Part shown: piece by piece, positions 2,170 to 23,033 of the stretch
How the letters are laid out: the number at the start of each line of letters is the position of its first letter
Numbering within the stretch: the stretch's first letter is position 1
Source of the DNA: a virus
Taxonomy: Duplodnaviria > Heunggongvirae > Uroviricota > Caudoviricetes
DNA length: 23,033 bases
IMG/VR virus record: IMGVR_UViG_2648501841_000003
Strand: one strand, 5' to 3'
Notes under the pieces: generated by a model
Database searches by the model: none
Seen by the model: the letters and a program-made list of their open reading frames with translations, nothing else
What the model was told of the DNA's origin: nothing
Program-made: the position numbers and the translations under genes

Positions 2170-2689
2170 ATGGAAGTCAACAAAAAGCAGCTGGCTGACA
2201 TTTTCGGCGCGAGTATCCGTACCATTCAGAACTGGCAGGAGCAGGGAATGCCCGTTCTGCGGGGTGGTGGCAAGGGTAATGAGGTACTTTATGACTCTGC
2301 CGCCGCCATAAAATGGTATGCCGAAAGGGATGCTGAAATTGAGAACGAAAAGCTGCGCCGGGAAGTTGAAGAACTGAGGCAGGACAGCGAGACAGATCTC
2401 CAGCCAGGGACTATTGAGTACGAACGCCATCGACTTACGCGTGCGCAGGCCGACGCACAGGAACTGAAGAATGCCAGAGACTCAGCTGAAGTGGTGGAAA
2501 CCGCATTCTGTACTTTCGTGCTGTCGCGGATCGCAGGTGAAATTGCCAGTATTCTCGACGGGATCCCCCTGTCGGTGCAGCGGCGTTTTCCGGAACTGGA
2601 AAACCGACATGTTGATTTCCTGAAACGGGATATCATCAAAGCCATGAACAAAGCAGCCGCGCTGGATGAACTGATACCGGGGTTGCTGA

Positions 2690-2715
<26 letters not shown>
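2170..2715 (+). CDS. nu1: terminase small subunit Nu1 (DNA-recognition subunit, winged-HTH N-terminus)
   Basis: 181-aa ORF MEVNKKQLADIFGASIRTIQNWQEQGMPVLRGGGKGNEVLYDSAAAIKWYAERD...; recognised as lambda Nu1. Directly downstream of cosB and overlaps the start of A. Confidence 0.95.
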
Positions 2716-6396
<3,681 letters not shown>

Positions 6397-6416
<20 letters not shown>

Positions 6417-7716
6417 TCTCCCGCATATTGCCAGCATGGCTTTTAATGAGCCGCTGATGCTTGAACCCGCCTATGCGCGGGTTTTCTTTTGTGCGCTTGC
6501 AGGCCAGCTTGGGATCAGCCGCCTGACGGATGCAGTATCCGGCGACAGCCTGACTGCCGGAGAGGCACCCGCGGCGCTGGCGTTATCCGGTGATGATGAC
6601 GGACCACGACAGGCCCGGAGTTATCAGGTCATGAACGGCATCGCCGTGCTGCCGGTGTCCGGTACGCTGGTCAGCCGGACGCGGGCGCTGCAGCCGTATT
6701 CGGGAATGACCGGTTACAACGGCATTATCGCCCGTCTGCAACAGGCTGCCAGCGATCCGATGGTGGACGGCATTCTGCTCGATATGGACACACCGGGCGG
6801 GATGGTGGCGGGAGCATTTGACTGTGCTGACATCATCGCCCGTGTGCGAGACATAAAACCGGTATGGGCGCTGGCCAACGACATGAACTGCAGTGCAGGT
6901 CAGCTGCTTGCCAGCGCCGCCTCCCGGCGTCTGGTCACGCAGACCGCCCGGACAGGCTCCATCGGCGTCATGATGGCTCACAGTAATTACGGTGCTGCCC
7001 TGGAGAAACAGGGCGTGGAAATCACGCTGATTTACAGCGGCAGCCATAAGGTGGATGGCAACCCCTACAGCCATCTACCGGGTGATGTCCGGGAAACACT
7101 GCAGTCCCGGATGGATGCAACCCGCCGGATGTTTGCGCAGAAGGTGTCGGCATATACCGGCCTGTCCGTGCAGGCTGTGCTGGATACCGAGGCTGCAGTG
7201 TACAGCGGTCAGGAGGCCATTGATGCCGGACTGGCTGATGAACTTGTCAACAGCACCGATGCGATCACCGTTATGCGTGATGCACTGGATGCACGTAAAT
7301 CCCGTCTCTCAGGAGGGCGAATGACCAAAGAGACTCAATCAACAACTGTTTCAGCCACTGCTTCGCAGGCTGACGTTACTGGCGTGGTGCCAGCGACGGA
7401 GGGCGAAAACGCCAGCGCGGCGCAGCCGGACGTGAACGCGCAGATCACCGCTGCGGTTGCGGCAGAAAACAGCCGCATTATGGGGATCCTCAACTGTGAG
7501 GAGGCTCACGGACGCGAAGAACAGGCCCGCGTGCTGGCAGAAACCCCCGGTATGACCGTGGAAACGGCCCGCCGCATTCTGGCCGCAGCACCACAGAGTG
7601 CACAGGCGCGCAGTGATACTGCGCTGGATCGTCTGATGCAGGGGGCACCGGCACCGCTGGCTGCAGGTAACCCGGCATCTGATGCCGTTAACGATTTGCT
7701 GAACACACCAGTGTAA
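6397..7716 (+). CDS. C: head maturation protease C (S49/ClpP-like serine peptidase); GTG start inside the 3' end of B
   Basis: The ORF is open from 6262, but the sequence VTAELRNLPHIASMAFNEPLMLEPAYARVFF begins at GTG 6397, which is preceded by AGGAGGAGAAGA. 439 codons, overlapping B by 20 nt as in lambda. Confidence 0.9.
7111..7716 (+). CDS. nu3: scaffolding protein Nu3, from an in-frame internal start within C
   Basis: ATG at 7111 is in frame with C and gives MDATRRMFAQKVSAYTGL... sharing the C stop codon. This is the known nested C/Nu3 arrangement of lambda. Confidence 0.8.
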   Translation: MDATRRMFAQKVSAYTGLSVQAVLDTEAAVYSGQEAIDAGLADELVNSTDAITVMRDALDARKSRLSGGRMTKETQSTTVSATASQADVTGVVPATEGENASAAQPDVNAQITAAVAAENSRIMGILNCEEAHGREEQARVLAETPGMTVETARRILAAAPQSAQARSDTALDRLMQGAPAPLAAGNPASDAVNDLLNTPV

Positions 7717-7725
7717 GGGATGTTT

Positions 7726-8058
7726 ATGACGAGCAAAGAAACCTTTACCCATTACCAGCCGCTGGGCAACAGTGACCCGGCTCATACCGCAACCGCGCCC
7801 GGCGGATTGAGTGCGAAAGCGCCTGCAATGACCCCGCTGATGCTGGACACCTCCAGCCGTAAGCTGGTTGCGTGGGATGGCACCACCGACGGTGCTGCCG
7901 TTGGCATTCTTGCGGTTGCTGCTGACCAGACCAGCACCACGCTGACGTTCTACAAGTCCGGCACGTTCCGTTATGAGGATGTGCTCTGGCCGGAGGCTGC
8001 CAGCGACGAGACGAAAAAACGGACCGCGTTTGCCGGAACGGCAATCAGCATCGTTTAA
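7726..8058 (+). CDS. D: head decoration protein D
   Basis: 110-aa [55 protein letters not shown]...; the two upstream in-frame codons (MF) are probably not used. Confidence 0.95.
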
Positions 8059-8078
8059 CCTGACCCTTCATCACTAAA

Positions 8079-8100
8079 GGCCGCCTGTGCGGCTTTTTTA
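8079..8100 (+). terminator. short GC stem-loop followed by a T-run between D and E (terminator- or attenuator-like)
   Basis: GGCCGC-CTGT-GCGGC followed by TTTTTT; the stem is only 5-6 bp, so this may be a partial terminator or an mRNA-stabilising hairpin. Confidence 0.3.
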
Positions 8101-8112
8101 CGGGATTTTTTT

Positions 8113-9138
8113 ATGTCGATGTACACAACCGCCCAACTGCTGGCGGCAAATGAGCAGAAATTTAAGTTTGATCCGCTGTTTCTGCGTCTCTTTTTCCGTG
8201 AGAGCTATCCCTTCACCACGGAGAAAGTCTATCTCTCACAAATTCCGGGACTGGTAAACATGGCGCTGTACGTTTCGCCGATTGTTTCTGGTGAGGTTAT
8301 CCGTTCCCGTGGCGGCTCCACCTCTGAATTTACGCCGGGATATGTCAAGCCGAAGCATGAAGTGAATCCGCAGATGCCCCTGCGTCGCCTGCCGGATGAA
8401 GATCCGCAGAATCTGGCGGACCCGGCTTACCGCCGCCGTCGCATCATCATGCAGAACATGCGTGACGAAGAGCTGGCCATTGCTCAGGTCGAAGAGATGC
8501 AGGCAGTTTCTGCCGTGCTCAAGGGCAAATACACCATGACCGGTGAAGCCTTCGATCCGGTTGAGGTGGATATGGGCCGCAGTGCGGCGAACAACATCAC
8601 GCAGTCCGGCGGCACGGAGTGGAGCAAGCGTGACAAGTCCACGTATGACCCGACCGACGATATCGAAGCCTACGCGCTGAACGCCAGCGGCGTGGTGAAT
8701 ATCATCGTGTTTGACCCGAAAGGCTGGGCGCTGTTCCGTTCCTTCAAAGCCGTCAGGGAGAAGCTGGATACCCGTCGCGGCTCTCATTCCGAACTGGAGA
8801 CAGCGGTAAAAGACCTGGGCAAAGCGGTGTCTTATAAGGGAATGTATGGCGATGTGGCCATCGTCGTGTATTCCGGACAGTACGTGGAAAACGGCGTCAA
8901 AAAGAACTTCCTGCCGGACAACACGATGGTGCTGGGGAACACTCAGGCACGCGGTCTGCGCACCTATGGCTGCATTCAGGATGCGGACGCACAGCGCGAA
9001 GGCATTAACGCCTCTGCCCGTTACCCGAAAAACTGGGTGACCACCGGCGATCCGGCGCGTGAGTTCACCATGATTCAGTCAGCACCGCTGATGCTGCTGG
9101 CTGACCCTGATGAGTTCGTGTCCGTACAACTGGCGTAA
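8113..9138 (+). CDS. E: major capsid protein E (HK97-fold)
   Basis: 341-aa ORF MSMYTTAQLLAANEQKFKFDPLFLRLFFRESYPFTTEKVYLSQIPGLVNMALYVSPIVSGEVIRSRGG...; length and position as lambda gpE. Confidence 0.95.
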   Translation: MSMYTTAQLLAANEQKFKFDPLFLRLFFRESYPFTTEKVYLSQIPGLVNMALYVSPIVSGEVIRSRGGSTSEFTPGYVKPKHEVNPQMPLRRLPDEDPQNLADPAYRRRRIIMQNMRDEELAIAQVEEMQAVSAVLKGKYTMTGEAFDPVEVDMGRSAANNITQSGGTEWSKRDKSTYDPTDDIEAYALNASGVVNIIVFDPKGWALFRSFKAVREKLDTRRGSHSELETAVKDLGKAVSYKGMYGDVAIVVYSGQYVENGVKKNFLPDNTMVLGNTQARGLRTYGCIQDADAQREGINASARYPKNWVTTGDPAREFTMIQSAPLMLLADPDEFVSVQLA

Positions 9139-9140
9139 TC

Positions 9141-9166
9141 ATGGCCCTTCGGGGCCATTGTTTTTC
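9141..9166 (+). terminator. perfect 7-bp hairpin with TTCG loop and T-rich tail immediately after the E stop
   Basis: ATGGCCC-TTCG-GGGCCAT then TGTTTTTCTG; sits between E and FI. Confidence 0.4.
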
Positions 9167-9179
9167 TGTGGAGGAGTCC

Positions 9180-9578
9180 ATGACGAAAGATGAACTGATT
9201 GCCCGTCTCCGCTCGCTGGGTGAACAACTGAACCGTGATGTCAGCCTGACGGGGACGAAAGAAGAACTGGCGCTCCGTGTGGCAGAGCTGGAAGAGGAGC
9301 TTGATGACACGGATGAAACTGCCGGTCAGGACACCCCTCTCAGCCGGGAAAATGTGCTGACCGGACATGAAAATGAGGTGGGATCAGCGCAGCCGGATAC
9401 CGTGATTCTGGATACGTCTGAACTGGTCACGGTCGTGGCACTGGTGAAGCTGCATACTGATGCACTTCACGTCACGCGGGATGAACCTGTGGCATTTGTG
9501 CTGCCGGGAACGGCGTTTCGTGTCTCTGCCGGTGTGGCAGCCGAAATGACAGAGCGCGGCCTGGCCAGAATGCAATAA
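9180..9578 (+). CDS. Fi: DNA-packaging accessory protein FI
   Basis: ORF open from 9141, but MTKDELIARLRSLGEQLNRDVSLTGTKEEL begins at ATG 9180, preceded by GGAGGAG; 132 aa. Confidence 0.9.
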   Translation: MTKDELIARLRSLGEQLNRDVSLTGTKEELALRVAELEEELDDTDETAGQDTPLSRENVLTGHENEVGSAQPDTVILDTSELVTVVALVKLHTDALHVTRDEPVAFVLPGTAFRVSAGVAAEMTERGLARMQ

Positions 9579-9589
9579 CGGGAGGCGCT

Positions 9590-9943
9590 GTGGCTGATTT
9601 CGATAACCTGTTCGATGCTGCCATTGCCCGCGCCGATGAAACGATACGCGGGTACATGGGAACGTCAGCCACCATGACATCCGGTGAGCAGTCCGGCGCA
9701 GTAATACGTGGTGTTTTTGATGACCCTGAAAATATCAGCTATGCCGGACAGGGCGTGCGTGTTGAAGGCTCCAGCCCGTCCCTGTTTGTCCGGACTGATG
9801 ATGTGCGGCAACTGCGGCGTGGAGACACGCTGACCATCGGTGAGGAAAACTTCTGGATAGACCGGATTTCGACGGATGATGGCGGAAGCTGTCATCTCTG
9901 GCTTGGGCGGGGCGTACCGCCTGCCGTTAACCGTCGTCGCTGA
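9590..9943 (+). CDS. Fii: head completion / head-tail connector protein FII
   Basis: 117-aa ORF MADFDNLFDAAIARADETIRGYMGTSATMTSGEQSGAVIRGVFDDPENISYAGQGVRVEG...; synteny. Confidence 0.9.
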   Translation: MADFDNLFDAAIARADETIRGYMGTSATMTSGEQSGAVIRGVFDDPENISYAGQGVRVEGSSPSLFVRTDDVRQLRRGDTLTIGEENFWIDRISTDDGGSCHLWLGRGVPPAVNRRR

Positions 9944-9954
9944 AGGGGGGATGT

Positions 9955-10533
9955 ATGGCCATAAAAGGTCTTGAGCAGGCCGTTGAAAACCTCAGTCGTA
10001 TCAGCAAAACGGCGGTGCCTGGTGCGTCAGCAATGGCCATTAACCGCGTTGCTTCATCCGCGATATCGCAGTCGGCGTCACAGGTTGCCCGTGAGACAAG
10101 GGTACGCCGGAAACTGGTAAAGGAAAGGGCCAGGCTGAAAAGGGCCACGGTTAAAAATCCGCAGGCCAGAATCAAGGTTAACCGGGGGGATTTGCCCGTA
10201 ATCAAGCTGGGTAACGCGCGGGTTGTCCTGTCCCGACGCAGGCGTCGTAAAAAGGGGCAGCGTTCATCCCTGAAAGGTGGCGGCAGCGTGCTTGTGGTGG
10301 GAAACCGTCGTATTCCCGGCGCGTTTATTCAGCAACTGAAAAATGGCCGGTGGCATGTCATGCAGCGTGTGGCCGGGAAAAACCGTTACCCCATTGATGT
10401 GGTGAAAATCCCGATGGCGGTGCCGCTGACCACGGCGTTTAAACAGAATATTGAGCGGATACGGCGTGAACGTCTTCCGAAAGAGCTGGGCTATGCGCTG
10501 CAGCATCAACTGAGAATGGTAATAAAGCGATGA
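9955..10533 (+). CDS. Z: tail completion protein Z
   Basis: 192-aa ORF; position between FII and U. Confidence 0.9.
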   Translation: MAIKGLEQAVENLSRISKTAVPGASAMAINRVASSAISQSASQVARETRVRRKLVKERARLKRATVKNPQARIKVNRGDLPVIKLGNARVVLSRRRRRKKGQRSSLKGGGSVLVVGNRRIPGAFIQQLKNGRWHVMQRVAGKNRYPIDVVKIPMAVPLTTAFKQNIERIRRERLPKELGYALQHQLRMVIKR

Positions 10534-10925
10534 AACATACTGAACTCCGTGCAGCCGTACTGGATGCACTGGAGAAGCATGACACCGGGGCGACGTTTTT
10601 TGATGGTCGCCCCGCTGTTTTTGATGAGGCGGATTTTCCGGCAGTTGCCGTTTATCTCACCGGCGCTGAATACACGGGCGAAGAGCTGGACAGCGATACC
10701 TGGCAGGCGGAGCTGCATATCGAAGTTTTCCTGCCTGCTCAGGTGCCGGATTCAGAGCTGGATGCGTGGATGGAGTCCCGGATTTATCCGGTGATGAGCG
10801 ATATCCCGGCACTATCAGATTTGATCACCAGTATGGTGGCCAGTGGCTATGACTACCGGCGCGACGATGATGCGGGCCTGTGGAGTTCAGCCGATCTGAC
10901 TTATGTCATTACCTATGAAATGTGA
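10530..10925 (+). CDS. U: tail terminator protein U
   Basis: 131-aa [51 protein letters not shown]...; ATGA overlap with Z. Confidence 0.9.
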
Positions 10926-10932
10926 GGACGAT

Positions 10933-11673
10933 ATGCCAACACCAAATCCTCTGGCACCGGTGAAAGGGGCCGGGACCACACTGTGGGTTTATAACGGGAA
11001 CGGCGACCCATATGCAAACCCGCTTTCAGACAATGACTGGTCGCGTCTGGCAAAGGTTAAAGACCTGACGCCCGGCGAACTGACCGCTGAGTCCTATGAC
11101 GACAGTTATCTCGATGATGAAGATGCGGACTGGGCCGCGACCGGACAGGGGCAGAAATCCGCTGGAGATACCAGCTTCACGCTGGCGTGGATGCCCGGAG
11201 AGCAGGGGCAGCAGGCGCTGCTGGCGTGGTTTAATGAAGGTGATACCCGTGCCTATAAAATCCGCTTCCCGAACGGCACGGTCGATGTGTTCCGCGGCTG
11301 GGTCAGCAGTATCGGTAAGGCGGTGACGGCGAAGGAAGTGATCACCCGCACGGTGAAAGTCACCAACGTGGGACGTCCGTCGATGGCAGAAGATCGCAGC
11401 ACGGTAACAGCGGCAACCGGCATGACCGTGACGCCTGCCAGCACCTCGGTGGTGAAAGGGCAGAGCACGACGCTGACCGTGGCATTCCAGCCGGAAGGCG
11501 CAACCGACAAGAGCTTCCGTGCGGTGTCTGCGGATAAAACAAAAGCCACCGTGTCGGTCAGTGGTATGACCATCACCGTGAAAGGTGTTGCTGCAGGCAA
11601 GGTCAACATTCCGGTCGTATCCGGTAATGGTGAGTTTGCTGCGGTTGCAGAAATCAACGTCACCGCCAGTTAA
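10933..11673 (+). CDS. V: major tail tube protein V with C-terminal Ig-like (Big_2-type) domain
   Basis: [20 protein letters not shown]... begins at the ATG at 10933 (the ORF is open from 10903); 246 aa. The C-terminal ~80 aa are a Thr/Val-rich beta-sandwich-like segment ([65 protein letters not shown]). Confidence 0.95.
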
Positions 11674-11688
11674 TCCGGAGAATCAGCG

Positions 11689-12111
11689 ATGTTCCTGAAA
11701 ACCGAATCATTTGAACATAACGGCGTGACCGTCACGCTTTCTGAACTGTCAGCCCTGCAGCGTATTGAGCATCTCGCCCTGATGAAACGGCAGGCAGAAC
11801 AGGCGGAGTCAGACAGCAACCGGAAGTTTACTGTGGAAGACGCCATCAGAACCGGCGCTTTTGTGGTGGCGATGTCCCTGTGGCATAACCATCCGAAGAA
11901 GACGCAGATGCCGTCCATGAATGAAGCCGTTAAACAGATTGAGCAGGAAGTGCTTACCACCTGGCCCGCGGAGGCAATTTCTCATGCTGAAAACGTGGTG
12001 TACCGGCTGTCCGGTATGTATGAGTTTGTGGTGAATGATGCCCCTGAACAGGCAGAGGACGCCGGGCCTGCAGAGCCTGTTTCTGCGGGAAAGTGTTCGA
12101 CGGTGAGCTGA
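11689..12111 (+). CDS. G: tail assembly chaperone G
   Basis: 140-aa ORF MFLKTESFEHNGVTVTLSELSALQRIEHLALMKRQAEQAESDSNRKF...; ends shortly after the slippery site. Confidence 0.9.
   Translation: MFLKTESFEHNGVTVTLSELSALQRIEHLALMKRQAEQAESDSNRKFTVEDAIRTGAFVVAMSLWHNHPKKTQMPSMNEAVKQIEQEVLTTWPAEAISHAENVVYRLSGMYEFVVNDAPEQAEDAGPAEPVSAGKCSTVS
12087..12093 (+). promoter_or_regulatory. -1 programmed ribosomal frameshift slippery heptamer G GGA AAG that produces the G-T fusion
   Basis: GGGAAAG is in the G zero frame (gcg GGA AAG tgt); the -1 frame is open from here to 12527. Confidence 0.85.
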
Positions 12112-12527
12112 GTTTTGCCCTGAAACTGGCGCGCGAGATGGGGCGACCCGACTGGCGTGCCATGCTTGCCGGGATGTCATCCACGGAGTATGCCGACTGG
12201 CACCGCTTTTACAGTACCCATTATTTTCATGATGTTCTGCTGGATATGCACTTTTCCGGGCTGACGTACACCGTGCTCAGCCTGTTTTTCAGCGATCCGG
12301 ATATGCATCCGCTGGATTTCAGTCTGCTGAACCGGCGTGAGGCTGACGAAGAGCCTGAAGATGATGTGCTGATGCAGAAAGCGGCAGGGCTTGCTGGAGG
12401 CGTTCGTTTTGGCCCGGACGGGAATGAAGTTATCCCCGCTTCCCCGGATGTGGCGGACATGACGGAGGATGACGTAATGCTGATGACAGTATCAGAAGGG
12501 ATCGCAGGAGGAGTCCGGTATGGCTGA
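12093..12527 (+). CDS. T: tail assembly chaperone T, expressed only as a G-T fusion by -1 frameshifting (11689..12527 overall)
   Basis: The -1 frame relative to G is open to 12527 with no independent SD or start signal, and ends where H begins. This is the conserved G/GT arrangement upstream of the tape measure gene. Confidence 0.85.
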   Translation: MFDGELSFALKLAREMGRPDWRAMLAGMSSTEYADWHRFYSTHYFHDVLLDMHFSGLTYTVLSLFFSDPDMHPLDFSLLNRREADEEPEDDVLMQKAAGLAGGVRFGPDGNEVIPASPDVADMTEDDVMLMTVSEGIAGGVRYG

Positions 12528-15069
12528 ACCGGTAGGCGATCTGGTCGTTGATTTAAGTCTGGATGCGGCCAGATTTGACGAGCAGATGGCCAGAGTCAGG
12601 CGTCATTTTTCCGGTACGGAAAGTGATGCGAAAAAAACAGCGGCAGTCGTTGAACAGTCGATGAGCCGGCAGGCGCTGGCTGCACAGAAAGCGGGAATTT
12701 CCGTCGGGCAGTATAAAGCCGCCATGCGTATGCTGCCTGCGCAGTTCACTGACGTGGCCACGCAGCTTGCAGGTGGGCAAAGTCCGTGGCTGATCCTGCT
12801 GCAACAGGGGGGGCAGGTGAAGGACTCCTTCGGCGGGATGATCCCCATGTTCCGGGGGCTTGCCGGTGCGATCACCCTGCCGATGGTGGGGGCCACCTCG
12901 CTGGCGGTGGCGACCGGTGCGCTGGCGTATGCCTGGTATCAGGGCAACTCAACCCTGTCCGATTTCAACAAAACGCTGGTCCTTTCCGGCAATCAGGCCG
13001 GGCTGACGGCAGATCGTATGCTGGTCCTGTCCAGAGCCGGGCAGGCGGCAGGGCTGACGTTTAACCAGACCAGCGAGTCACTCAGCGCACTGGTTAAGGC
13101 GGGGGTAAGCGGTGAGGCTCAGATTGCGTCCATCAGCCAGAGTGTGGCGCGTTTCTCCTCTGCATCAGGCGTGGAGGTGGACAAGGTCGCTGAAGCCTTC
13201 GGGAAGCTGACCACTGACCCGACGTCGGGGCTGACAGCGATGGCGCGCCAGTTCCATAACGTGACGGCGGAGCAGATTGCGTATGTTGCTCAGTTGCAGC
13301 GTTCCGGCGAAGAAGCCGGGGCATTGCAGGCGGCGAACGAGGCCGCGACGAAAGGGTTTGATGACCAGACCCGCCGCCTGAAAGAGAACATGGGCACGCT
13401 GGAAACCTGGGCAGACAGGACAGCACGGGCATTCAAATCCATGTGGGATGCGGTGCTGGATATTGGTCGTCCTGATACCGCGCAGGAGATGCTGATTAAG
13501 GCAGAGGCCGCGTTTAAGAAAGCGGACGATATCTGGAATCTGCGCAAGGATGATTATTTTGTTAACGATGAAGCGCGGGCGCGTTACTGGGATGATCGTG
13601 AAAAGGCCCGTCTTGCGCTTGAAGCCGCCCGAAAGAAGGCTGAGCAGCAGAGTCAACAGGACAAAAATGCGCAGCAACAGAGCGATACCGAAGCGTCACG
13701 GCTGAAATATACCGAAGAGGCGCAGAAGGCTTACGAACGCCTGCAGACGCCGCTGGAGAAATATACCGCCCGTCAGGAAGAACTGAATAAGGCACTGAAA
13801 GACGGGAAAATCCTGCAGGCAGATTACAACACGCTGATGGCGGCGGCGAAAAAGGACTATGAAGCGACGCTGAAAAAGCCGAAACAGTCCGGCGTGAAGG
13901 TGTCTGCGGGCGATCGTCAGGAAGACAGTGCTCATGCTGCCCTGCTGACGCTTCAGGCAGAACTCCGGATGCTGGAGAAGCATGCCGGAGCGAATGAGAA
14001 AATCAGCCAGCAGCGCCGGGATTTGTGGAAGGCAGAAAGTCAGTTCGCGGTACTGGAGGAGGCGGCACAACGTCGCCAGCTGTCCGCACAGGAGAAATCC
14101 CTGCTGGCGCATAAAGACGAGACGCTGGAGTACAAACGCCAGCTGGCTGTACTTGGCGACAAGGTCACCTATCAGGAGCACCTGAACGCGCTGGCACAGC
14201 AGGCGGATAAATTCGCACAGCAACAACGGGCAAAACGGGCCGCCATTGATGCAAAAAACCGGGGGCTGACTGACCGGCAGGCAGCGCGGGAAGCCACGGA
14301 ACAGCGCCTGAAGGAACAGTATGGCGATAATCCTCTGGCGCTGAATAACGTCATGTCAGAGCAGAAAAAGACCTGGGCAGCTGAAGACCAGCTTCGCGGG
14401 AGCTGGATGGCAGGCCTCAGGTCAGGCTGGAGTGAGTGGGAAGAGAGCGCCACGGACAGTATGTCGCAGGTTAAAAGTGCTGCCACGCAGACCTTTGATG
14501 GTATTGCACAGAATATGGCGGCGATGCTGACCGGCAGTGAACAGAACTGGCGCAGCTTCACCCGTTCCGTGCTGTCCATGATGACAGAAATTCTGCTTAA
14601 GCAGGCAATGGTGGGGATTGTCGGAAGTATAGGCAGCGCCATTGGCGGCGGCGCATCAGCGTCAGGCGGTACAGCCATTCAGGCAGCTGCGGCGAAATTC
14701 CATTTTGCGGCCGGAGGGTTTACGGGAACCGGCGGCAAATATGAGCCAGCGGGGATTGTTCACCGTGGTGAATTTGTCTTCACGAAGGAGGCAACCAGCC
14801 GGATTGGCGTAGGAAATCTTTACCGGCTGATGCGCGGCTATGCCACCGGCGGTTATGTCGGTACACCGGGCAGCATGGCGGACAGCCGGTCGCAGGCGTC
14901 CGGGACGTTTGAGCAGAATAACCATGTGGTGATTAACAACGACGGCACGAACGGTCAGATAGGGCCACAGGCACTGAAGGCGGTTTATGACGTAGCCCGT
15001 AAGGCGGCAATGGATGTTGTGACCGGGCAGATGCGCGATGGTGGTCTGTTCTCCGGAGGTGGACGATGA
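12520..15069 (+). CDS. H: tail tape measure protein H
   Basis: 849-aa ORF MAEPVGDLVVDLSLDAARFDEQMARVRRHF...; long coiled-coil-rich middle, Gly-rich C-terminal region, ends ...INNDGTNGQIGPQALKAVYDVARKAAMDVVTGQMRDGGLFSGGGR. Confidence 0.95.
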   Translation: MAEPVGDLVVDLSLDAARFDEQMARVRRHFSGTESDAKKTAAVVEQSMSRQALAAQKAGISVGQYKAAMRMLPAQFTDVATQLAGGQSPWLILLQQGGQVKDSFGGMIPMFRGLAGAITLPMVGATSLAVATGALAYAWYQGNSTLSDFNKTLVLSGNQAGLTADRMLVLSRAGQAAGLTFNQTSESLSALVKAGVSGEAQIASISQSVARFSSASGVEVDKVAEAFGKLTTDPTSGLTAMARQFHNVTAEQIAYVAQLQRSGEEAGALQAANEAATKGFDDQTRRLKENMGTLETWADRTARAFKSMWDAVLDIGRPDTAQEMLIKAEAAFKKADDIWNLRKDDYFVNDEARARYWDDREKARLALEAARKKAEQQSQQDKNAQQQSDTEASRLKYTEEAQKAYERLQTPLEKYTARQEELNKALKDGKILQADYNTLMAAAKKDYEATLKKPKQSGVKVSAGDRQEDSAHAALLTLQAELRMLEKHAGANEKISQQRRDLWKAESQFAVLEEAAQRRQLSAQEKSLLAHKDETLEYKRQLAVLGDKVTYQEHLNALAQQADKFAQQQRAKRAAIDAKNRGLTDRQAAREATEQRLKEQYGDNPLALNNVMSEQKKTWAAEDQLRGSWMAGLRSGWSEWEESATDSMSQVKSAATQTFDGIAQNMAAMLTGSEQNWRSFTRSVLSMMTEILLKQAMVGIVGSIGSAIGGGASASGGTAIQAAAAKFHFAAGGFTGTGGKYEPAGIVHRGEFVFTKEATSRIGVGNLYRLMRGYATGGYVGTPGSMADSRSQASGTFEQNNHVVINNDGTNGQIGPQALKAVYDVARKAAMDVVTGQMRDGGLFSGGGR

Positions 15070-15395
15070 AAACCTTCCGCTGGAAAGTGAAACCCGGTAT
15101 GGATGTGGCTTCGGCCCCTTCCGTAAGAAAGGTGCGCTTTGGTGATGGCTATTCCCAGCGAGCGCCTGCCGGGCTGAATGCCGACCTGAAAACGTACAGC
15201 GTGACGCTTTCTGTTCCCCGTTGGGAGGCCACGGCGCTTGAGTCGTTTCTGGCTGAGCACGGGGGCTGGAAGGCCTTTCTGTGGACGCCGCCTTATGAGT
15301 GGCGGCAGATAAAGGTGACCTGCGCAAAATGGTCGTCGCGGGTCAGTATGCTGCGTGTTGAGTTCAGCGCAGAGTTTGAACAGGTGGTGAACTGA
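15066..15395 (+). CDS. M: minor tail protein M
   Basis: 109-aa ORF MKTFRWKVKPGMDVASAPSVRKVRFGDGYSQRAPAGLNADLKTYSVTLSV...; overlaps the H stop and the L start (TGATG). Confidence 0.9.
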   Translation: MKTFRWKVKPGMDVASAPSVRKVRFGDGYSQRAPAGLNADLKTYSVTLSVPRWEATALESFLAEHGGWKAFLWTPPYEWRQIKVTCAKWSSRVSMLRVEFSAEFEQVVN

Positions 15396-15676
15396 TGCAG
15401 GATATCCGGCAGGAAACACTGAATGAATGCACCCGTGCGGAGCAGTCGGCCAGCGTGGTGCTCTGGGAAATCGATCTGACAGAGGTCGGTGGAGAACGTT
15501 ATTTTTTCTGTAATGAGCAGAACGAAAAAGGTGAGCCGGTCACCTGGCAGGGGCGACAGTATCAGCCGTATCCCATTCAGGGGAGTGGTTTTGAACTGAA
15601 TGGCAAAGGCACCAGTACGCGCCCCACGCTGACGGTTTCTAACCTGTACGGTATGGTCACCGGGATGGCGGAAGAT
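15395..15676 (+). CDS. L: minor tail protein L, N-terminal 94 codons only; cut by the N10 gap at 15677
   Basis: MQDIRQETLNECTRAEQSASVVLWEIDLTEVGGERYFFCNEQNEKGEPVTWQGRQYQPYPIQGSGFELNGKGTSTRPTLTVSNLYGMVTGMAED, then the N run. The track ORF 15395-16222 is an artefactual read-through into a different gene. Confidence 0.85.
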
Positions 15677-15686
15677 NNNNNNNNNN
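15677..15686. other. run of 10 N (assembly gap / scaffold join)
   Basis: Exactly 10 n characters; sequence context changes from mid-L to the 3' end of a tape-measure gene. Confidence 0.95.
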
Positions 15687-16222
15687 GCAACATGGGAAAT
15701 GGCCTGGCAACTTTTGTCACTACCGGCAAACTCAATTTCAAATCCTTCACCTCTTCTGTGCTGTCAGATATGGCGAAAATCCTGGCGCAGGCAACCATGA
15801 TGAAATCGATAAAAGGGATTGGCAGTGTACTGGGATTTGATCTCAGCAGCCTTTCCCTGAATGCCAATGGGGGGATTTATCAGTCTGCTGATTTGAGTCG
15901 TTACAGTGGCACGGTGGTTAACCGTCCGACGTTTTTTGCTTTTGCAAAAGGCGCGGGTGTGATGGGGGAAGCGGGACCTGAAGCCATTCTGCCATTGCGT
16001 CGTGGTGCTGACGGTAAGCTGGGGGTTGTGGCGGATATTGGGGGTTCAGGTATGGCGATGTTTTCCCCGCAGTACAACATCGAGATCAATAACGATGGCA
16101 CGAACGGGCAGATAGGTCCGGCTGCCCTGAAGGCGGTTTATGACCTCGGGAAAAAAGCGGCAGCGGACTTTATGCAACAGCAGGCCCGTGATGGTGGTCG
16201 GTTAAGTGGAGCATATCGGTAA
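15687..16222 (+). CDS. H: second-allele tape measure protein, C-terminal 177 codons only (5' part missing at the gap)
   Basis: In-frame from 15689: NMGNGLATFVTTGKLNFKSFTSSVLSDMAKILAQ...INNDGTNGQIGPAALKAVYDLGKKAAADFMQQQARDGGRLSGAYR*. Shares the C-terminal INNDGTNGQIGP-ALKAVYD motif with H at 12520-15069 but is otherwise diverged. Confidence 0.75.
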
Positions 16223-16551
16223 TGGAGACGTTTCACTGGAAAGTGCGCCCGGATATGAATGTGGTATCAGAGCCGAAAGTGGTGACAGTGAAGCTGGGCG
16301 ATGGTTATGAACAGCGTCGTGCGGCGGGACTGAATAACCAGTTGTCGACTTACAGCGTGACGATACGTGTTCGTAAATGTGAACACCCATCTTTAAAAGC
16401 CTTTCTGGAACGGCACGGTGGCGTCCGTGCATTTCAGTGGACGCCACCTTATGACTGGAAACCGATCAGGGTGGTTTGTCGTAAATGGTCGGCAAGCGTG
16501 GGGGCGCTGTGGGTAACCATAACGGCAGATTTTGAACAGGTCGTGGCATAG
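16222..16551 (+). CDS. M: second-allele minor tail protein M (diverged from the copy at 15066-15395)
   Basis: 109-aa ORF METFHWKVRPDMNVVSEPKVVTVKLGDGYEQRRAAGLNNQLSTYSVTIRV...; same length and motif spacing as M (FxWKVxPxM, GDGYxQR, STYSVT, WTPPY) but clearly diverged. TAATG overlap with the preceding stop. Confidence 0.85.
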   Translation: METFHWKVRPDMNVVSEPKVVTVKLGDGYEQRRAAGLNNQLSTYSVTIRVRKCEHPSLKAFLERHGGVRAFQWTPPYDWKPIRVVCRKWSASVGALWVTITADFEQVVA

Positions 16552-16560
16552 GAGGCTCTG

Positions 16561-17259
16561 ATGCAGGATATTCCACAGGAAACACATCATGAGACGACAC
16601 GCCTCACTCAGTCAGCCCAGGCGGTGCTCTGGGAAATCGATCTGACAGAGGTCGGTGGTGAACGTTATTTTTTCTGTAATGAGCAGAACGAAAAAGGTGA
16701 GCCGGTTACCTGGCAGGGGCGGCAGTATCAGGCATACCCCATTCAGGGGACGGGATTTGAACTGAACGGCAAGGGCAGTTCTGCCCGTCCGACACTGACG
16801 GTTTCTAACCTGCACGGCATGGTCACGGGGATGGCGGAAGACCTGCAGAGTCTGGTCGGCGGAACGGTGGTCCGGCGTAAGGTTTACGCCCGTTTTCTGG
16901 ATGCGGTGAACTTCGTCAACGGAAACAGCGACGCCGATCCGGAGCAGGAGGTGATCAGCCGCTGGCGCATTGAGCAGTGCAGCGAACTGAGCGCGGTGAG
17001 TGCCTCTTTTGTACTGTCCACGCCGACGGAAACGGACGGCGCTGTTTTTCCGGGACGTATCATGCTGGCCAACACCTGCACCTGGACCTATCGCGGCGAT
17101 GAGTGCGGTTATCACGGTCCGGCGGTCGCGGATGAATATGACCAGCCAACGTCCGATATCACGAAGGATAAATGCAGCAAATGCCTGAGCGGTTGTAAGT
17201 TCCGCAATAACGTCGGCAACTTTGGCGGCTTCCTTTCCATTAACAAACTTTCGCAGTAA
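16561..17259 (+). CDS. L: minor tail protein L, complete second allele (mosaic: N-terminus diverged, remainder lambda-like)
   Basis: 232-aa ORF MQDIPQETHHETTRLTQSAQAVLWEIDLTEVGGERYFFCNEQNEKGEPVTWQGRQYQAYPIQGTGFELNGKGSSARPTLTVSNLHGMVTGMAEDLQSLVGG...CSKCLSGCKFRNNVGNFGGFLSINKLSQ. Contains a Cys-rich C-terminal region. Confidence 0.9.
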   Translation: MQDIPQETHHETTRLTQSAQAVLWEIDLTEVGGERYFFCNEQNEKGEPVTWQGRQYQAYPIQGTGFELNGKGSSARPTLTVSNLHGMVTGMAEDLQSLVGGTVVRRKVYARFLDAVNFVNGNSDADPEQEVISRWRIEQCSELSAVSASFVLSTPTETDGAVFPGRIMLANTCTWTYRGDECGYHGPAVADEYDQPTSDITKDKCSKCLSGCKFRNNVGNFGGFLSINKLSQ

Positions 17260-17264
17260 ATCCC

Positions 17265-18016
17265 ATGACACAGACAGAATCAGCGATTCTGGCGCACGCC
17301 CGGCGATGTGCGCCAGCGGAGTCGTGCGGCTTCGTGGTAAGCACGCCGGAGGGGGAAAGATATTTCCCCTGCGTGAATATCTCCGGTGAGCCGGAGGCGT
17401 ATTTCCGTATGTCGCCGGAAGACTGGCTGCAGGCAGAAATGCAGGGTGAGATTGTGGCGNNNNNNNNNNGGTCCACAGCCACCCCGGTGGTCTGCCCTGG
17501 CTGAGTGAGGCCGACCGGCGGCTGCAGGTGCAGAGTGATTTGCCGTGGTGGCTGGTCTGCCGGGGGACGATTCATAAGTTCCGCTGTGTGCCGCATCTCA
17601 CCGGGCGGCGCTTTGAGCACGGGGTGACGGACTGTTACACGCTGTTCCGGGATGCTTATCATCTGGCGGGGATTGAGATGCCGGATTTTCATCGCGAGGA
17701 TGACTGGTGGCGTCACGGTCAGAATCTCTATCTGGATAATCTGGAGGCCACAGGGCTGTATCAGGTGCCGTTGTCATCAGCACAACCGGGCGATGTGCTG
17801 CTGTGCTGTTTTGGTTCATCGGTGCCGAATCATGCCGCCATTTACTGTGGTGATGGCGAGCTGCTGCACCATATTCCTGAACAACTGAGCAAACGAGAGA
17901 GGTATACCGACAAATGGCAGCGACGCACACACTCCCTCTGGCGTCACCGGGCATGGCGCGCATCTGCCTTTACGGGGATTTGCAACGATTTGGCCGCCGC
18001 ATCGACCTTCGTGTGA
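17265..18016 (+). CDS. K: tail assembly protein K (JAB/MPN-type metallopeptidase N-terminus plus NlpC/P60-like C-terminus); interrupted by the N10 gap at 17460-17469
   Basis: N-terminal piece MTQTESAILAHARRCAPAESCGFVVSTPEGERYFPCVNISGEPEAYFRMSPEDWLQAEMQGEIVA, gap, then VHSHPGGLPWLSEADRRLQVQSDLPWWLVCRG...NDLAAASTFV*. The two pieces are in different frames only because 10 N replace what is probably one codon (Leu). Confidence 0.85.
17460..17469. other. run of 10 N inside K, next to the JAMM motif (HSHPGG); no duplicated flank here
   Basis: Exactly 10 n; the flanking codons are consecutive K residues, so the true missing length is probably about 2-3 nt. Confidence 0.95.
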
Positions 18017-18528
18017 AAACGGGGGCTGAAGCCATCCGCGCACTGGCCACACAGCTCCCGGTGTTTCGTCAGAAGCTGAGCGACGGCTGGTATCAGGTAC
18101 GGATTACCGGGCGGGACGTCAGCACGTCCGGGTTAACGGCGCAGTTACATGAGACTCTGCCTGATGGCGCTGTGATTCATATTGTTCCCAGAGTCGCCGG
18201 GGCCAAGTCAGGTGGCGTATTCCAGATTGTCCTGGGGGCTGCCGCCATTGCCGGATCATTCTTTACCGCCGGAGCCACCCTTGCAGCATGGGGGGCAGCC
18301 ATTGGGGCCGGTGGTATGACCGGCATCCTGTTTTCTCTCGGTGCCAGTATGGTGCTCGGTGGTGTGGCGCAGATGCTGGCACCGAAAGCCAGAACTCCCC
18401 GTACACAGACAACGGATAACGGCAAACAAAACACCTATTTCTCCTCACTGGATAACATGGTTGCCCAGGGCAATGTTCTGCCGGTTCTGTACGGTGAAAT
18501 GCGCGTGGGGTCACGCGTGGTTTCTCAA
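17914..18528 (+). CDS. I: tail assembly protein I, allele 1; 3' end cut by the N10 gap (last ~18 codons missing)
   Basis: MAATHTLPLASPGMARICLYGDLQRFGRRIDLRVKTGAEAIRALATQLPVFRQKLSDGWYQVRITGRDVSTSG...GEMRVGSRVVSQ then N. Start overlaps the 3' end of K in another frame, as in lambda. Confidence 0.85.
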
Positions 18529-18538
18529 NNNNNNNNNN
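18529..18538. other. run of 10 N (assembly gap); sequence restarts about 550 bp upstream in I/K with a different allele
   Basis: Exactly 10 n. The post-gap sequence TTTGCAACGATTTGGCCGCCGCATCGACCTTCGTGT repeats 17978-18013 with substitutions. Confidence 0.95.
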
Positions 18539-18539
18539 T

Positions 18540-19121
18540 TTGCAACGATTTGGCCGCCGCATCGACCTTCGTGTAAAAACGGGGGCCGAAGCCATCCGGG
18601 CGCTGGCCATGCAGATCCCGGCGTTTCGTCAGAAGCTGAGCGACGGCTGGTATCTGGTACGGATTGCCGGGCGTGATACAGGTGAAAATGAATTATCTGC
18701 CCGTCTTAATGAGCCGCTGGCAAATGGTGCCGTGATCCACATCGTGCCGCGCCTGGCGGGTGCTAAAAGTGGCGGTGTGTTTCAGGCAGTGCTGGGTGCG
18801 GCGCTGATTGCGGTGGCATGGTGGAACCCTGTGGGCTGGCTGGGGGCCGCGGCTGTATCGGGTATGTATGCAGCAGGGGCCAGTATGATCCTGGGTGGTG
18901 TGGCGCAGATGCTGGCACCGAAAGCCAGAACTCCCCGTACACAGACAACGGATAACGGCAAACAAAACACCTATTTCTCCTCACTGGATAACATGGTTGC
19001 CCAGGGCAATGTTCTGCCCGTTCTGTACGGTGAAATGCGCGTGGGATCACGTGTGGTTTCTCAGGAGATCAGCACGGCAGACGAAGGGGACGGTGGTCAG
19101 GTTGTGGTGATTGGTCGCTGA
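18540..19121 (+). CDS. I: tail assembly protein I, allele 2; 5' end missing at the gap, 3' end complete
   Basis: LQRFGRRIDLRVKTGAEAIRALAMQIPAFRQKLSDGWYLVRIAGRDTGENELSARLNEPLANGAVIHIVPRLAGAKSGGVFQAVLGAALIAVAWWNPVGWLGAAAVSGMYAAGASMILGG...VVSQEISTADEGDGGQVVVIGR*. The central segment is diverged from allele 1; both ends are near-identical. Confidence 0.85.
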   Translation: MQRFGRRIDLRVKTGAEAIRALAMQIPAFRQKLSDGWYLVRIAGRDTGENELSARLNEPLANGAVIHIVPRLAGAKSGGVFQAVLGAALIAVAWWNPVGWLGAAAVSGMYAAGASMILGGVAQMLAPKARTPRTQTTDNGKQNTYFSSLDNMVAQGNVLPVLYGEMRVGSRVVSQEISTADEGDGGQVVVIGR

Positions 19122-19138
19122 TGCAAAATGTTTTATGT

Positions 19139-19165
19139 GAAACCGCCTCCGGGCGGTTTTGTCGT
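19139..19165 (+). terminator. hairpin plus T-run between I and J (terminator- or attenuator-like)
   Basis: AAACCGCC-TCCG-GGCGGTTTT followed by GTCGTTT; an 8-bp stem including A-U pairs. Confidence 0.35.
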
Positions 19166-19181
19166 TTATGGAGCATGACGA

Positions 19182-19973
19182 ATGGGTAAAGGAAGCAGTA
19201 AGGGGCATACCCCGCGCGAAGCGAAGGACAACCTGAAGTCCACGCAGCTGCTGAGTGTGATCGATGCCATCAGCGAAGGACCGATTGAAGGTCCGGTGGA
19301 TGGATTAAAAAGCGTGCTGCTGAACAGTACGCCGGTGCTGGACAGTGAGGGGAATACCAATATATCCGGCGTCACGGTGGTGTTCCGGGCCGGTGAGCAG
19401 GAGCAGACACCGCCGGAGGGATTTGAATCCTCCGGCTCCGAGACGGTGCTCGGTACAGAAGTGAAATATGACACGCCGATCACCCGGACCATCACGTCGG
19501 CAAACATTGACCGTCTGCGTTTTACTTTCGGCGTGCAGGCACTGGTGGAAACCACCTCAAAGGGGGACAGGAATCCATCGGAAGTCCGCCTGCTGGTTCA
19601 GATACAACGTAACGGTGGCTGGGTGACGGAAAAAGACATCACCATTAAGGGCAAAACCACGTCGCAGTATCTGGCCTCGGTGGTGGTGGATAACCTGCCG
19701 CCGCGCCCGTTTAATATCCGGATGCGCAGGATGACGCCGGACAGCACCACAGACCAGCTGCAGAACAAAACGCTCTGGTCGTCATACACCGAAATCATCG
19801 ATGTGAAACAGTGCTACCCGAACACGGCACTGGTTGGCGTGCAGGTGGACTCGGAGCAGTTTGGCAGTCAGCAGGTGAGCCGTAATTATCATCTTCGCGG
19901 GCGCATTCTGCAGGTGCCGTCAAACTATGATCCGGAAAAACGCACTTACAGCGGCATCTGGGACGGAACGTTA
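19182..19973 (+). CDS. J: tail tip/central fibre protein J, segment a (N-terminal 264 codons), cut by an N10 gap
   Basis: MGKGSSKGHTPREAKDNLKSTQLLSVIDAISEGPIEGPVDGLKSVLLNSTPVLDSEGNTNISGVTVVFRAGEQEQTPPEGF...; SD GGAG upstream; synteny after I. Confidence 0.9.
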
Positions 19974-19983
19974 NNNNNNNNNN
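19974..19983. other. run of 10 N; following sequence re-covers the last ~180 bp of segment a at roughly 90% identity
   Basis: CGATGTGAAACAGTGCTACCCGAACACGGCACTGGT occurs on both sides (19795 and 19984) with scattered substitutions downstream. Confidence 0.95.
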
Positions 19984-19984
19984 C

Positions 19985-20587
19985 GATGTGAAACAGTGCT
20001 ACCCGAACACGGCACTGGTCGGCGTGCAGGTGGACTCGGAGCAGTTCGGCAGCCAGAAGGTGAGCCGTAATTATCATCTGCGCGGGCGTATTCTGCAGGT
20101 GCCGTCGAATTATAACCCGCAGACGCGGCAATACAGCGGTATCTGGGACGGAACGTTTAAACCGGCATACAGCAACAACATGGCCTGGTGTCTGTGGGAT
20201 ATGCTGACCCACCCGCGCTACGGCATGGGGAAACGTCTTGGTGCGGCGGATGTGGATAAATGGGCGCTGTATGTCATCGGCCAGTACTGCGACCAGTCAG
20301 TGCCGGACGGCTTTGGCGGCACGGAGCCGCGCATCACCTGTAATGCCTACCTGACCACACAGCGTAAGGCGTGGGATGTTCTCAGCGATTTCTGCTCGGC
20401 GATGCGCTGTATGCCGGTATGGAACGGGCAGACGCTGACGTTCGTGCAGGACCGGCCGTCGGATAAGGTGTGGACCTATAACCGCAGTAATGTGGTGATG
20501 CCGGATGATGGCGCGTCGTTCCGCTACAGCTTCAGCGCCCTCAAGGACCGCCATAATGCCGTTGAGGTGAACTGGATTGACCCGGAT
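19985..20587 (+). CDS. J: J, segment b (internal fragment, different allele from segment a)
   Basis: In frame from 19985: DVKQCYPNTALVGVQVDSEQFGSQKVSRNYHLRGRILQVPSNYNPQTRQYSGIWDGTFKPAYSNNMAWCLWDMLTHPRYGMGKRLGAADVDKW...NWIDPD. Confidence 0.85.
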
Positions 20588-20597
20588 NNNNNNNNNN
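20588..20597. other. run of 10 N; following sequence re-covers ~275 bp of segment b at roughly 96% identity
   Basis: CTTTGGCGGCACGGAGCCGCGCATCACCTGTAATGC is present at 20313 and again at 20598. Confidence 0.95.
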
Positions 20598-20598
20598 C

Positions 20599-21432
20599 TT
20601 TGGCGGCACGGAGCCGCGCATCACCTGTAATGCGTACCTGACCACGCAGCGCAAGGCGTGGGATGTGCTCAGTGATTTCTGCTCGGCGATGCGCTGTATG
20701 CCGGTATGGAACGGGCAGACGCTGACGTTCGTGCAGGACCGGCCGTCGGATAAGGTGTGGACCTATAACCGCAGTAATGTGGTGATGCCGGATGATGGCG
20801 CGCCGTTCCGCTACAGCTTTAGCGCCCTGAAAGACCGCCATAATGCCGTTGAGGTGAACTGGACTGACCCGGACAACGGCTGGGAGACGGCGACAGAGCT
20901 TGTGGAGGACACGCAGGCCATTGCCCGTTACGGTCGTAACGTCACGAAGATGGATGCCTTTGGCTGTACCAGTCGGGGGCAGGCACACCGTGCCGGGCTG
21001 TGGCTGATTAAAACGGAACTGCTGGAAACGCAGACCGTGGACTTCAGCGTGGGCGCAGAAGGGCTTCGCCATGTACCGGGCGATGTCATTGAAATCTGTG
21101 ATGATGACTATGCGGGGATCAGCATCGGTGGGCGTGTGCTGGCGGTGAACAGCCAGACCCGGACGCTGACGCTCGACCGTGAAATCACGCTGCCATCCTC
21201 CGGCACCACGCTGATAAGCCTGGTTGACGGAAGTGGCAATCCGGTCAGCGTGGAGGTTCAGTCCGTCACCGACGGCGTGAAGGTAAAAGTGAGCCGTGTT
21301 CCTGACGGCGTTGCCGGATACAGCGTATGGGGGCTGAAGTTGCCGACGTTGCGCCAGCGCCTGTTCCGCTGCGTGAGTATCCGTGAGAACGACGACGGCA
21401 CGTATGCCATCACCGCCGTGCAGCATGTACCC
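20599..21432 (+). CDS. J: J, segment c (internal fragment)
   Basis: In frame from 20599: FGGTEPRITCNAYLTTQRKAWDVLSDFCSAMRCMPVWNGQTLTFVQDRPSDKVWTYNRSNVVMPDDGAPFRYSF...AITAVQHVP. Confidence 0.85.
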
Positions 21433-21442
21433 NNNNNNNNNN
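21433..21442. other. run of 10 N; following sequence re-covers ~173 bp of segment c at roughly 94% identity
   Basis: GTCCGTCACCGACGGCGTGAAGGTAAAAGTGAGCCG is present at 21260 and again at 21443. Confidence 0.95.
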
Positions 21443-21443
21443 G

Positions 21444-21908
21444 TCCGTCACCGACGGCGTGAAGGTAAAAGTGAGCCGGGTTCCTGACGGTGTTGCTGAA
21501 TACAGCGTGTGGGGGCTGAAGCTGCCGACGCTGCGCCAGCGCCTGTTCCGCTGCGTGAGTATCCGTGAGAACGACGACGGCACGTATGCCATCACTGCCG
21601 TGCAGCATGTGCCGGAGAAAGAGGGCATCGTGGATAACGGGGCGCACTTTGACGGTGACCAGAGCAGCACGGTGAATGGTGTCACGCCGCCAGCGGTGTA
21701 GCACCTGACCGCCGAAGTCTCCGCAGACAGCGGGGAATATCAGGTGCTGGCGCGATGGGACACGCCGAAGGTGGTGAAGGGTGTGAGCTTCCTGCTTCGC
21801 CTGACCGTGGCAGCGGATGACGGCAGTGAGCGGCTGGTCAGCACGGCCCGGACGACGGAAACCACATACCGCTTCACGCAGCTGGCGCTGGGGAACTACA
21901 GGCTGACA
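21444..21908 (+). pseudogene. J: J, segment d: internal fragment carrying an in-frame amber codon (TAG at 21699-21701) where the other allele has CAG (Gln)
   Basis: Frame from 21444 reads ...[93 protein letters not shown]. The overlapping segment e reads ...[19 protein letters not shown]... at the same place. Confidence 0.5.
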
Positions 21909-21918
21909 NNNNNNNNNN
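21909..21918. other. run of 10 N; following sequence re-covers ~284 bp of segment d at roughly 94-95% identity
   Basis: CATCGTGGATAACGGGGCGCACTTTGACGG is present at 21625 and again at 21920. Confidence 0.95.
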
Positions 21919-21920
21919 CC

Positions 21921-23033
<1,113 letters not shown>

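Follow-up and report, generated by a model that had tools for sequence, protein, structure and literature searches.

Apparent duplications of tail genes in an Escherichia coli O157:H7 draft record are alleles of two lambda-like prophages written in series

The stretch of DNA analysed here (the window, 23,033 nucleotides) is prophage sequence with lambda-like tail genes, several of which appear to be present twice between runs of N. We have found that the window is the whole public whole-genome shotgun (WGS) record LCWU01000054.1 (23,033 bp), from assembly GCA_001006425.1 of E. coli O157:H7, and that its apparent gene duplications are an assembly artefact and no new biology. It is very probably a short-read scaffold built on a de Bruijn graph with k=37, in which the alternative arms of bubbles formed by two prophages, called here A and B, were written in series without any real duplication. 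What is directly observed is the identity of the segments between the N runs, the single-copy gene order of the closed genomes, the coincidence of the segment ends with branch points at k=37 and the restoration of both prophage paths when redundant arms are taken out.

Seven runs of N are present in the window, each exactly 10 long, at 15677, 17460, 18529, 19974, 20588, 21433 and 21909, all of them coordinates that the original prediction had given exactly, and no N is found outside these runs in the whole window. They divide it into eight segments, S0 to S7, which are listed below together with the gaps, the bubble arms (see below) and the genes, those of S0 with annotation transferred from the prophage A locus of the closed genome FRIK944. 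Positions within genes are in nucleotides (nt), lengths are in bases (b), and A-only and B-only refer to sites at which the segment carries the base of only one of the two prophages.

1-15676, plus strand: S0, a prophage A contig, 99.99% identical (2 mismatches) to FRIK944 NZ_CP016625.1 1723585-1739260; bor fragment, ybcV/W, terminase, head genes, tail genes Z-U-V-G-T, H (12520-15069), M (15066-15395) and truncated L (nt 1-282 at 15395-15676).
15677-15686: gap 1, 10 N, preceded by the A contig and followed by a B contig whose start lies about 1.14 kb upstream on the reference.
15687-17459, plus strand: S1, a prophage B contig, 100% identical to FRIK944 973120-974892 and to Sakai Sp3; 384 B-only and 0 A-only sites, with A and B identical from 16930 onward; H of B (nt 2531-3066), M of B (16222-16551), L of B (16561-17259) and K nt 1-195 (17265-17459).
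17460-17469: gap 2, 10 N over 2 hidden bases; S1 ends at position 19293 of the prophage A locus and S2 starts at 19296.
17470-18528, plus strand: S2, 99.9% identical to prophage A locus 19296-20354; 125 A-only and 1 B-only site; K nt 198-744 (17470-18016, A and B identical to 18014) and I of A nt 1-516 of 573 (18013-18528); A arm of bubble 3 at 17979-18528.
18529-18538: gap 3, 10 N; A arm of bubble 3 before it, B arm after it.
18539-19973, plus strand: S3, a mosaic of B (18539-19284), A (19349-19613, 21 sites) and B (19652-19973); I of B nt 66-648 and J of B nt 1-792 (19182-19973); B arms of bubble 3 (18539-19064) and bubble 4 (19799-19973).
19974-19983: gap 4, 10 N; B arm of bubble 4 before it, A arm after it.
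19984-20587, plus strand: S4, J of prophage A nt 618-1221, 99.7% identical to prophage A locus 21089-21692; 32 A-only and 2 B-only sites; A arms of bubble 4 (19984-20158) and bubble 5 (20311-20587).
20588-20597: gap 5, 10 N; A arm of bubble 5 before it, B arm after it.
20598-21432, plus strand: S5, J nt ~945-1779, of B type to 21258 and of A type from 21297 to the end, with a lone A site at 21061; B arm of bubble 5 (20598-20874) and A-type arm of bubble 6 (21261-21432).
21433-21442: gap 6, 10 N; A-type arm of bubble 6 before it, B arm after it.
21443-21908, plus strand: S6, J of prophage B nt 1608-2073, 100% identical to FRIK944 977654-978119; 29 B-only and 0 A-only sites; B arms of bubble 6 (21443-21614) and bubble 7 (21626-21908).
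21909-21918: gap 7, 10 N; B arm of bubble 7 before it, A arm after it.
21919-23033 (record end), plus strand: S7, J of prophage A nt 1790-2904, 99.7% identical to prophage A locus 22261-23375; 30 A-only and 3 B-only sites; A arm of bubble 7 (21919-22202).
16930-18014, plus strand: exact A/B repeat of 1,085 b, comprising the end of L and most of K and broken only by gap 2.

At gaps 3 to 7, the tail of the pre-gap segment aligns with the very first bases of the post-gap segment, both in segment-against-segment BLAST and in ungapped comparison. These overlaps measure 550 b for S2/S3 (77.5% identity over the full length), 175 b for S3/S4 (20 mismatches, 88.6% identity), 277 b for S4/S5 (11 mismatches, 96.0%), 172 b for S5/S6 (10 mismatches, 94.2%) and 283 b for S6/S7 (16 mismatches, 94.3%), with E-values from 1e-62 to 1e-130, far past chance. 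The original prediction had described restarts 170-550 bp upstream after five gaps, at about 90-96% identity; the range of lengths is right, and so is the identity for four of the five overlaps, but S2/S3 is much more divergent. Its example of near-identical ends in gene I (18361-18528 and 18899-19066) holds at 164 of 168 positions (97.6%). As for the number of restarts, gaps 3 to 7 behave as described, but the sequence also restarts after gap 1, in the 3' end of the tape-measure gene, some 1.14 kb upstream on the reference and at ~70% identity, which accounts for the complete second copies of M and L. Gap 2, at which only 2 bases are missing, is not an allelic restart, as its flanks abut without overlap and the dinucleotide CT (K nt 196-197) has been swapped for 10 N. 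The true distance across the gaps ranges from -1143 to +2 b, yet the spacer is always exactly 10 N. In terms of length, the window exceeds closed phages and the closed prophage by 2,658 b, and the overlaps and Ns sum to 2,668 b, in agreement within indel noise; the tail region used as a query spans ~8.4 kb in sequenced phages against 11.0 kb in the window. Simple base masking was considered as the origin of the N runs and rejected, because at six gaps the two sides overlap, by 172-1,143 b, and at the seventh they lie 2 b and not 10 b apart.

The eight segments come from two prophages, separated by 750 kb in FRIK944. Prophage A, at 1.72 Mb, is of the Sakai Sp8 type and adjoins icd, and prophage B, at 0.97 Mb, is of the Sakai Sp3 type and adjoins the bio operon. 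S0, S2, S4 and S7 are 99.7-99.99% identical to prophage A and thus of Sp8 type, in contrast to 83-97.5% for S1, S3, S5 and S6; S1, S6 and most of S3 and S5 are of Sp3 type. The order of the segments on prophage A is strictly that of their reference start coordinates. Base-by-base typing of S1-S7 revealed no base matching neither A nor B; S1 and S6 are pure B, and S2, S4 and S7 are A with 1-3 lone B-type sites each. Sequence related to S0 is found in 11-16 places per closed O157:H7 genome. The original prediction had proposed to align the post-gap segments to the pre-gap flanks and to a closed genome of the same strain. The comparison with closed O157:H7 genomes supports its view that contig ends of two or more lambdoid prophages residing together were left unmerged, as segments alternate between A and B and these two supply all of the sequence. 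At least four further prophages (Sp6, Sp10, Sp11 and Sp14) shape the break points, as described below.

In each closed prophage inspected (FRIK944 A, FRIK944 B and Sakai Sp8) there is a single H-M-L-K-I-J module, and the order in FRIK944 A is tape measure H, M, L, K (C40 peptidase), I, J, Lom and tail fibre, all in single copy. This lambda-like tail-tip order is supported by the annotated closed loci, by 95-97% DNA identity to lambda-like phages and by Pfam, which on the gene calls of the record gives TMP_2/Tape_meas_lam_C, Phage_min_tail, Phage_tail_L, NLPC_P60, Lambda_tail_I and FNIII-A_GpJ/Phage-tail_3/Ig_J. The repeat at 16930-18014 has zero diagnostic sites and all of its 37-mers are common to A and B; the K protein is identical in both prophages, with WP_000194779.1 annotated at the two loci.

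The positions at which the segments begin and end point to a graph with k=37. We asked for each of the 14 boundaries whether the set of prophages holding the k-mer changes exactly there, using a pool formed by FRIK944 A and B plus nine Sakai prophages (Sp4, Sp6, Sp8, Sp9, Sp10, Sp11, Sp12, Sp14 and Sp15). At k=37 the membership flips at 13 of the 14 boundaries (6/7 starts and 7/7 ends), with a background flip rate of 1.5% per position along the two tail regions, and no start (0/7) fits at any k of 32-36 or 38-43. Furthermore, in four overlaps, S2/S3 included, the first mismatch stands exactly 36 bases past the post-gap start, the final base of every pre-gap segment is an allelic difference, and the last base of S0 is the start of the final A-specific 37-mer. 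This overlap geometry is that of two arms of a de Bruijn-graph bubble, in which k-1 = 36 and the last k-1 bases are left unwritten.

Two places in which a small node was skipped follow the same rule. At gap 2, a 38-b stretch at prophage A locus 19294-19331 recurs in the K gene of Sp6, and the match does not extend by even one base on either side; the stretch corresponds to two 37-mers, equal to the 2 bases hidden under the gap. The long A/B repeat is split here because this node of two k-mers is shared with a third prophage, Sp6. The Sp6 node was predicted before testing; the k-mers within the segments alone had missed it, as the two relevant ones lie under the Ns, and the reference was tested instead. 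From the end of S5 to the start of S7 on the A path there is a 46-b stretch, that is, ten 37-mers, shared with Sp10, Sp11 and Sp14, and S7 starts on a variant because these ten k-mers separate it from the end of S5. In both cases the size of the hidden gap equals that of the skipped node (stretch length - k + 1).

The break at the K/I border recurs elsewhere. In five independent draft O157 assemblies, B-type contigs all begin exactly 127 b ahead of the first site in gene I at which A and B differ, and position 1 of these contigs is prophage B locus 25314, the K/I branch point. It is the same branch point across assemblies, with an offset (127 against 36 b) that scales with the k of the assembler. 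The K/I break is a reproducible assembly break point in the O157 lineage. The five drafts share the A/B break in gene I but leave the contigs unjoined, whereas LCWU01000054.1 joins them in series with 10 N.

When one arm of each pair is removed, both prophages can be read through the same scaffold. The A path was composed of S0, 16843-17459, CT, S2, 19065-19798, S4, 20875-21432, ten reference bases and S7; it measures 20,375 b, exactly as the closed prophage A interval, with 26 mismatches (99.87% identity) and with the reading frames of M, L, K, I and J all uninterrupted. The 26 substitutions relative to FRIK944 prophage A are mostly B-type bases at collapsed sites. The B path, made from the complementary arms, is exactly as long as the B interval (5,831 b) and 99.38% identical to it. 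Both prophage tails thread one scaffold and the 'duplications' are alternative arms in series, which upholds the earlier warning that an apparent M-L, I or J duplication is not biology, as arm removal restores single-copy paths of reference length. Once the redundant arms are gone, what is left is an ordinary lambda-like H-M-L-K-I-J tail tip, with no biological difference.

All these data fit a mechanism in which reads from A and B would collapse into one shared graph node wherever the two are identical for at least 37 bases, and would open a bubble, one arm for A and one for B, wherever they differ. A scaffolder anchoring on the shared nodes would find both arms of each unresolved bubble linked to the same flanks, would write them one behind the other and, the gap estimate being negative or tiny, would insert a minimum spacer of 10 N. 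The outcome would be one H-M-L-K-I-J module with the other allele of six stretches placed in series. Between bubbles, the contig would keep the A- or B-type base at lone variants, or would switch allele at a shared node. The lone B-type bases within A-type segments (18429, 20212, 20455, 22244, 22691 and 22703) are consistent with single-nucleotide bubbles collapsed to an arbitrary allele, or with differences between the source strain and FRIK944.

These properties resemble those of a Velvet-type graph: arms open k-1 = 36 bases before the variant and lack their final k-1 bases, tiny nodes (2 and 10 k-mers) are dropped, lone variants are collapsed, and short or negative gaps appear as 10 N. The segments here can be likened to the nodes as Velvet is said to represent them in its original description and manual, and according to the same manual gaps of <10 bp are reportedly written as 10 N. 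Our literature search found no paper mentioning LCWU or GCA_001006425, nor any stating a '10 Ns' rule for Velvet.

It is possible, although we consider it unlikely, that the same contigs were ordered after assembly against a reference prophage or genome and joined by a fixed 10-N spacer, with no read-pair linkage. The strict order of the segments by reference start would be expected from such a procedure, as would a spacer of exactly 10 N whatever the true distance, and the inclusion of pieces from 750 kb away, which read pairs alone permit only through shared nodes. However, the k-1 bases are lost at one end only, since segments start 36 b before a variant and end on the last one. This one-sided trimming is the mark of nodes joined in k-mer space inside the assembler, as stand-alone contigs normally keep k-1 bases on both ends (the 127-b overhangs of the other drafts). 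The exact skipping of the 2-k-mer and 10-k-mer nodes also argues for joining within the assembler. In any case, post-assembly ordering describes the same artefact.

S3 and S5, which combine the two types, deserve separate consideration. S3 is intact in 0 of 5,426 closed E. coli genomes, with a best match of 98.5%, and the best closed-genome match of full-length S5 is only 98.9%, both segments being closest to B. A 76-mer from the S3 mosaic had 0 hits among viral, genome and metagenome contigs, as did the gap 1 junction with its Ns among viral contigs. The allele switches inside both segments fall exactly at 37-mers common to A and B; in S5, the change from B to A occurs at the shared 37-mers 21259-21260. 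These mosaics would arise because the graph walk switches allele at shared nodes or because simple bubbles are collapsed, so that S3 and S5 are most likely graph chimeras and the J alleles read from this record would be artificial recombinants. The A-type tracts (19349-19613 in S3, and 21297-21432 and 21061 in S5) could otherwise result from gene conversion of an Sp3-type J by an Sp8-type J, for which we see only a slim chance.

An origin of the two allele sets in two strains, through a mixed culture or a contaminated library, and not in two prophages of one genome, would likewise give allelic overlaps at 89-96% identity. However, both sets are present in single closed O157:H7 genomes, on the icd side and on the bio side, at 99.99% and 100%, and S1 holds the 3' end of a different and longer tape-measure gene (3,066 nt in prophage B and 2,550 nt in A), which implies a different prophage, so that a mixture is highly improbable. 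Finally, true partial tandem duplications of M-L, I and J within one prophage, with the Ns as masked or uncalled bases, might be suggested by the two M, two L-like and two I open reading frames (ORFs) that ORF calling yields and by the real recombination between homologous prophage tails in O157:H7 (PMC10925052), but they are excluded for practical purposes: there are zero sequenced junctions, each being replaced by 10 N; at six gaps the two flanks overlap on the reference and do not lie 10 b apart; the arms are 99.7-100% identical to different, distant loci and 77-96% to the neighbouring arm; closed prophages inspected and sequenced phages carry one copy per gene; boundaries fall on k=37 branch points set partly by other prophages, which no biological process obeys; and deletion of one arm per pair gives the exact reference length with intact frames.

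Several points weigh against the interpretation of the window as a k=37 scaffold with bubble arms in series. The start of S1 (15687; prophage B locus 23121) is the sole boundary off the k=37 branch points of the pool, and no stretch of at least 24 b around it is shared with any of ten other prophage loci; a prophage outside the pool, a coverage break or trimming could be the cause. The pool itself mixes FRIK944 and Sakai prophages, none of them from the source strain. The A-type stretch of S3 comprises 214 k-mers (first bases 19400-19613) whose B counterpart is absent from the record, so that not every bubble shows both arms. In these two respects, the one deviant start and the long A-type stretch without a B counterpart, the record is unlike what a Velvet-type graph would be expected to give. 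Furthermore, the 37-mers of S1-S7 all occur in A or B save 18 (starts 21025-21042), which combine a B-type base at 21042 with an A-type base at 21061, 19 b apart; a walk through shared 37-mers leaves them unexplained, and at least one of the two sites is a true strain difference or an error. Lastly, the linking by paired reads inside the assembler and the Velvet-like nature of the latter are both inferred.

The artefact has visible consequences in the gene calls of the record, in which M is present twice, I twice (187 and 193 amino acids, aa), K is split (65 + 181 aa) because two bases were swapped for ten Ns, and J is in five pieces (264, 217, 278, 76 and 371 aa). In addition, a chimeric ORF of 275 aa (15395-16222) reads through gap 1, joining L of A nt 1-282 (94 codons), X residues and the C-terminus of H of B. 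This ORF had no entry in a clustered protein collection, and an exact look-up of the J fragment 19182-19991 found it not on record. Taken literally by prophage catalogues, pangenomes or scans for tail fibres and host range, such a record would provide false gene gains, pseudogenes and mosaic J alleles, and the value of the present analysis is that of a quality-control warning on a public GenBank WGS record. It also offers a diagnostic that does not need reads, namely segment ends that coincide, for a single k, with k-mer branch points in the pool of paralogues, together with arm deletion that restores the reference length.

Duplications of this kind are known from other genomes. False 'heterotype' duplications in genome assemblies were analysed by Ko et al. 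(2022, Genome Biol 23:205; PMC9516828), a class first described by Kelley & Salzberg 2010 according to the same work. As in that study, two diverged versions stand side by side on one scaffold with an assembly gap between them and with copy-specific k-mers, and the results are spurious gene gains along with genes that are fragmented or chimeric. In our case the k-mers of the arms are A-only or B-only, from two distinct loci, and all seven joins are runs of 10 N, six of which part segments that overlap in reference coordinates. The difference is that the versions in PMC9516828 are the haplotypes of diploids in vertebrate assemblies, whereas the chromosome concerned here is that of a haploid bacterium and the versions are paralogous prophages occupying two of its loci. 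If one copy were purged in this case, genuine sequence that belongs 750 kb away would be misplaced. With regard to O157:H7, it has been reported that short reads cannot resolve its homologous lambdoid prophages, and that inversions and deletions occur between homologous tail sequences of 5.8-10 kb (PMC10925052).

A split K gene (76 + 162 aa) in another public draft, GCA_000462405.2, was examined as a further instance of the same artefact and rejected, since it is an unrelated homopolymer frameshift without Ns. At ~9950-9960 of the locus taken from AVRD01000003.1, a record of that assembly, there is a one-base deletion beside a C run (CCACAGCACCCC, compared with CCACAGCCACCCC in the reference), which looks like a homopolymer sequencing error.

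Some other observations concern the prophages themselves. In the closed FRIK944 genome, prophage B (locus 26048-29461 and 11132-13724) has J annotated as a pseudogene with an internal stop, terminase genes that are frameshifted or stopped and a split portal gene. Prophage B is therefore defective, and its tail genes are probably relics. Downstream it carries nleB2, nleC, nleH1 and nleD. In Sakai Sp4 and Sp10, sodC (Cu/Zn superoxide dismutase) is located as a moron on the opposite strand between I and J (Sp4 locus 42677-43204 and Sp10 locus 43674-44201), a position at which A and B have a short spacer only. Within S0, G (11689-12111) overlaps T (12093-12527), and the heptamer GGGAAAG at 12087-12093, at the end of G, corresponds to the classic lambda G/GT -1 programmed frameshift site, an ordinary element of a lambda-like tail.

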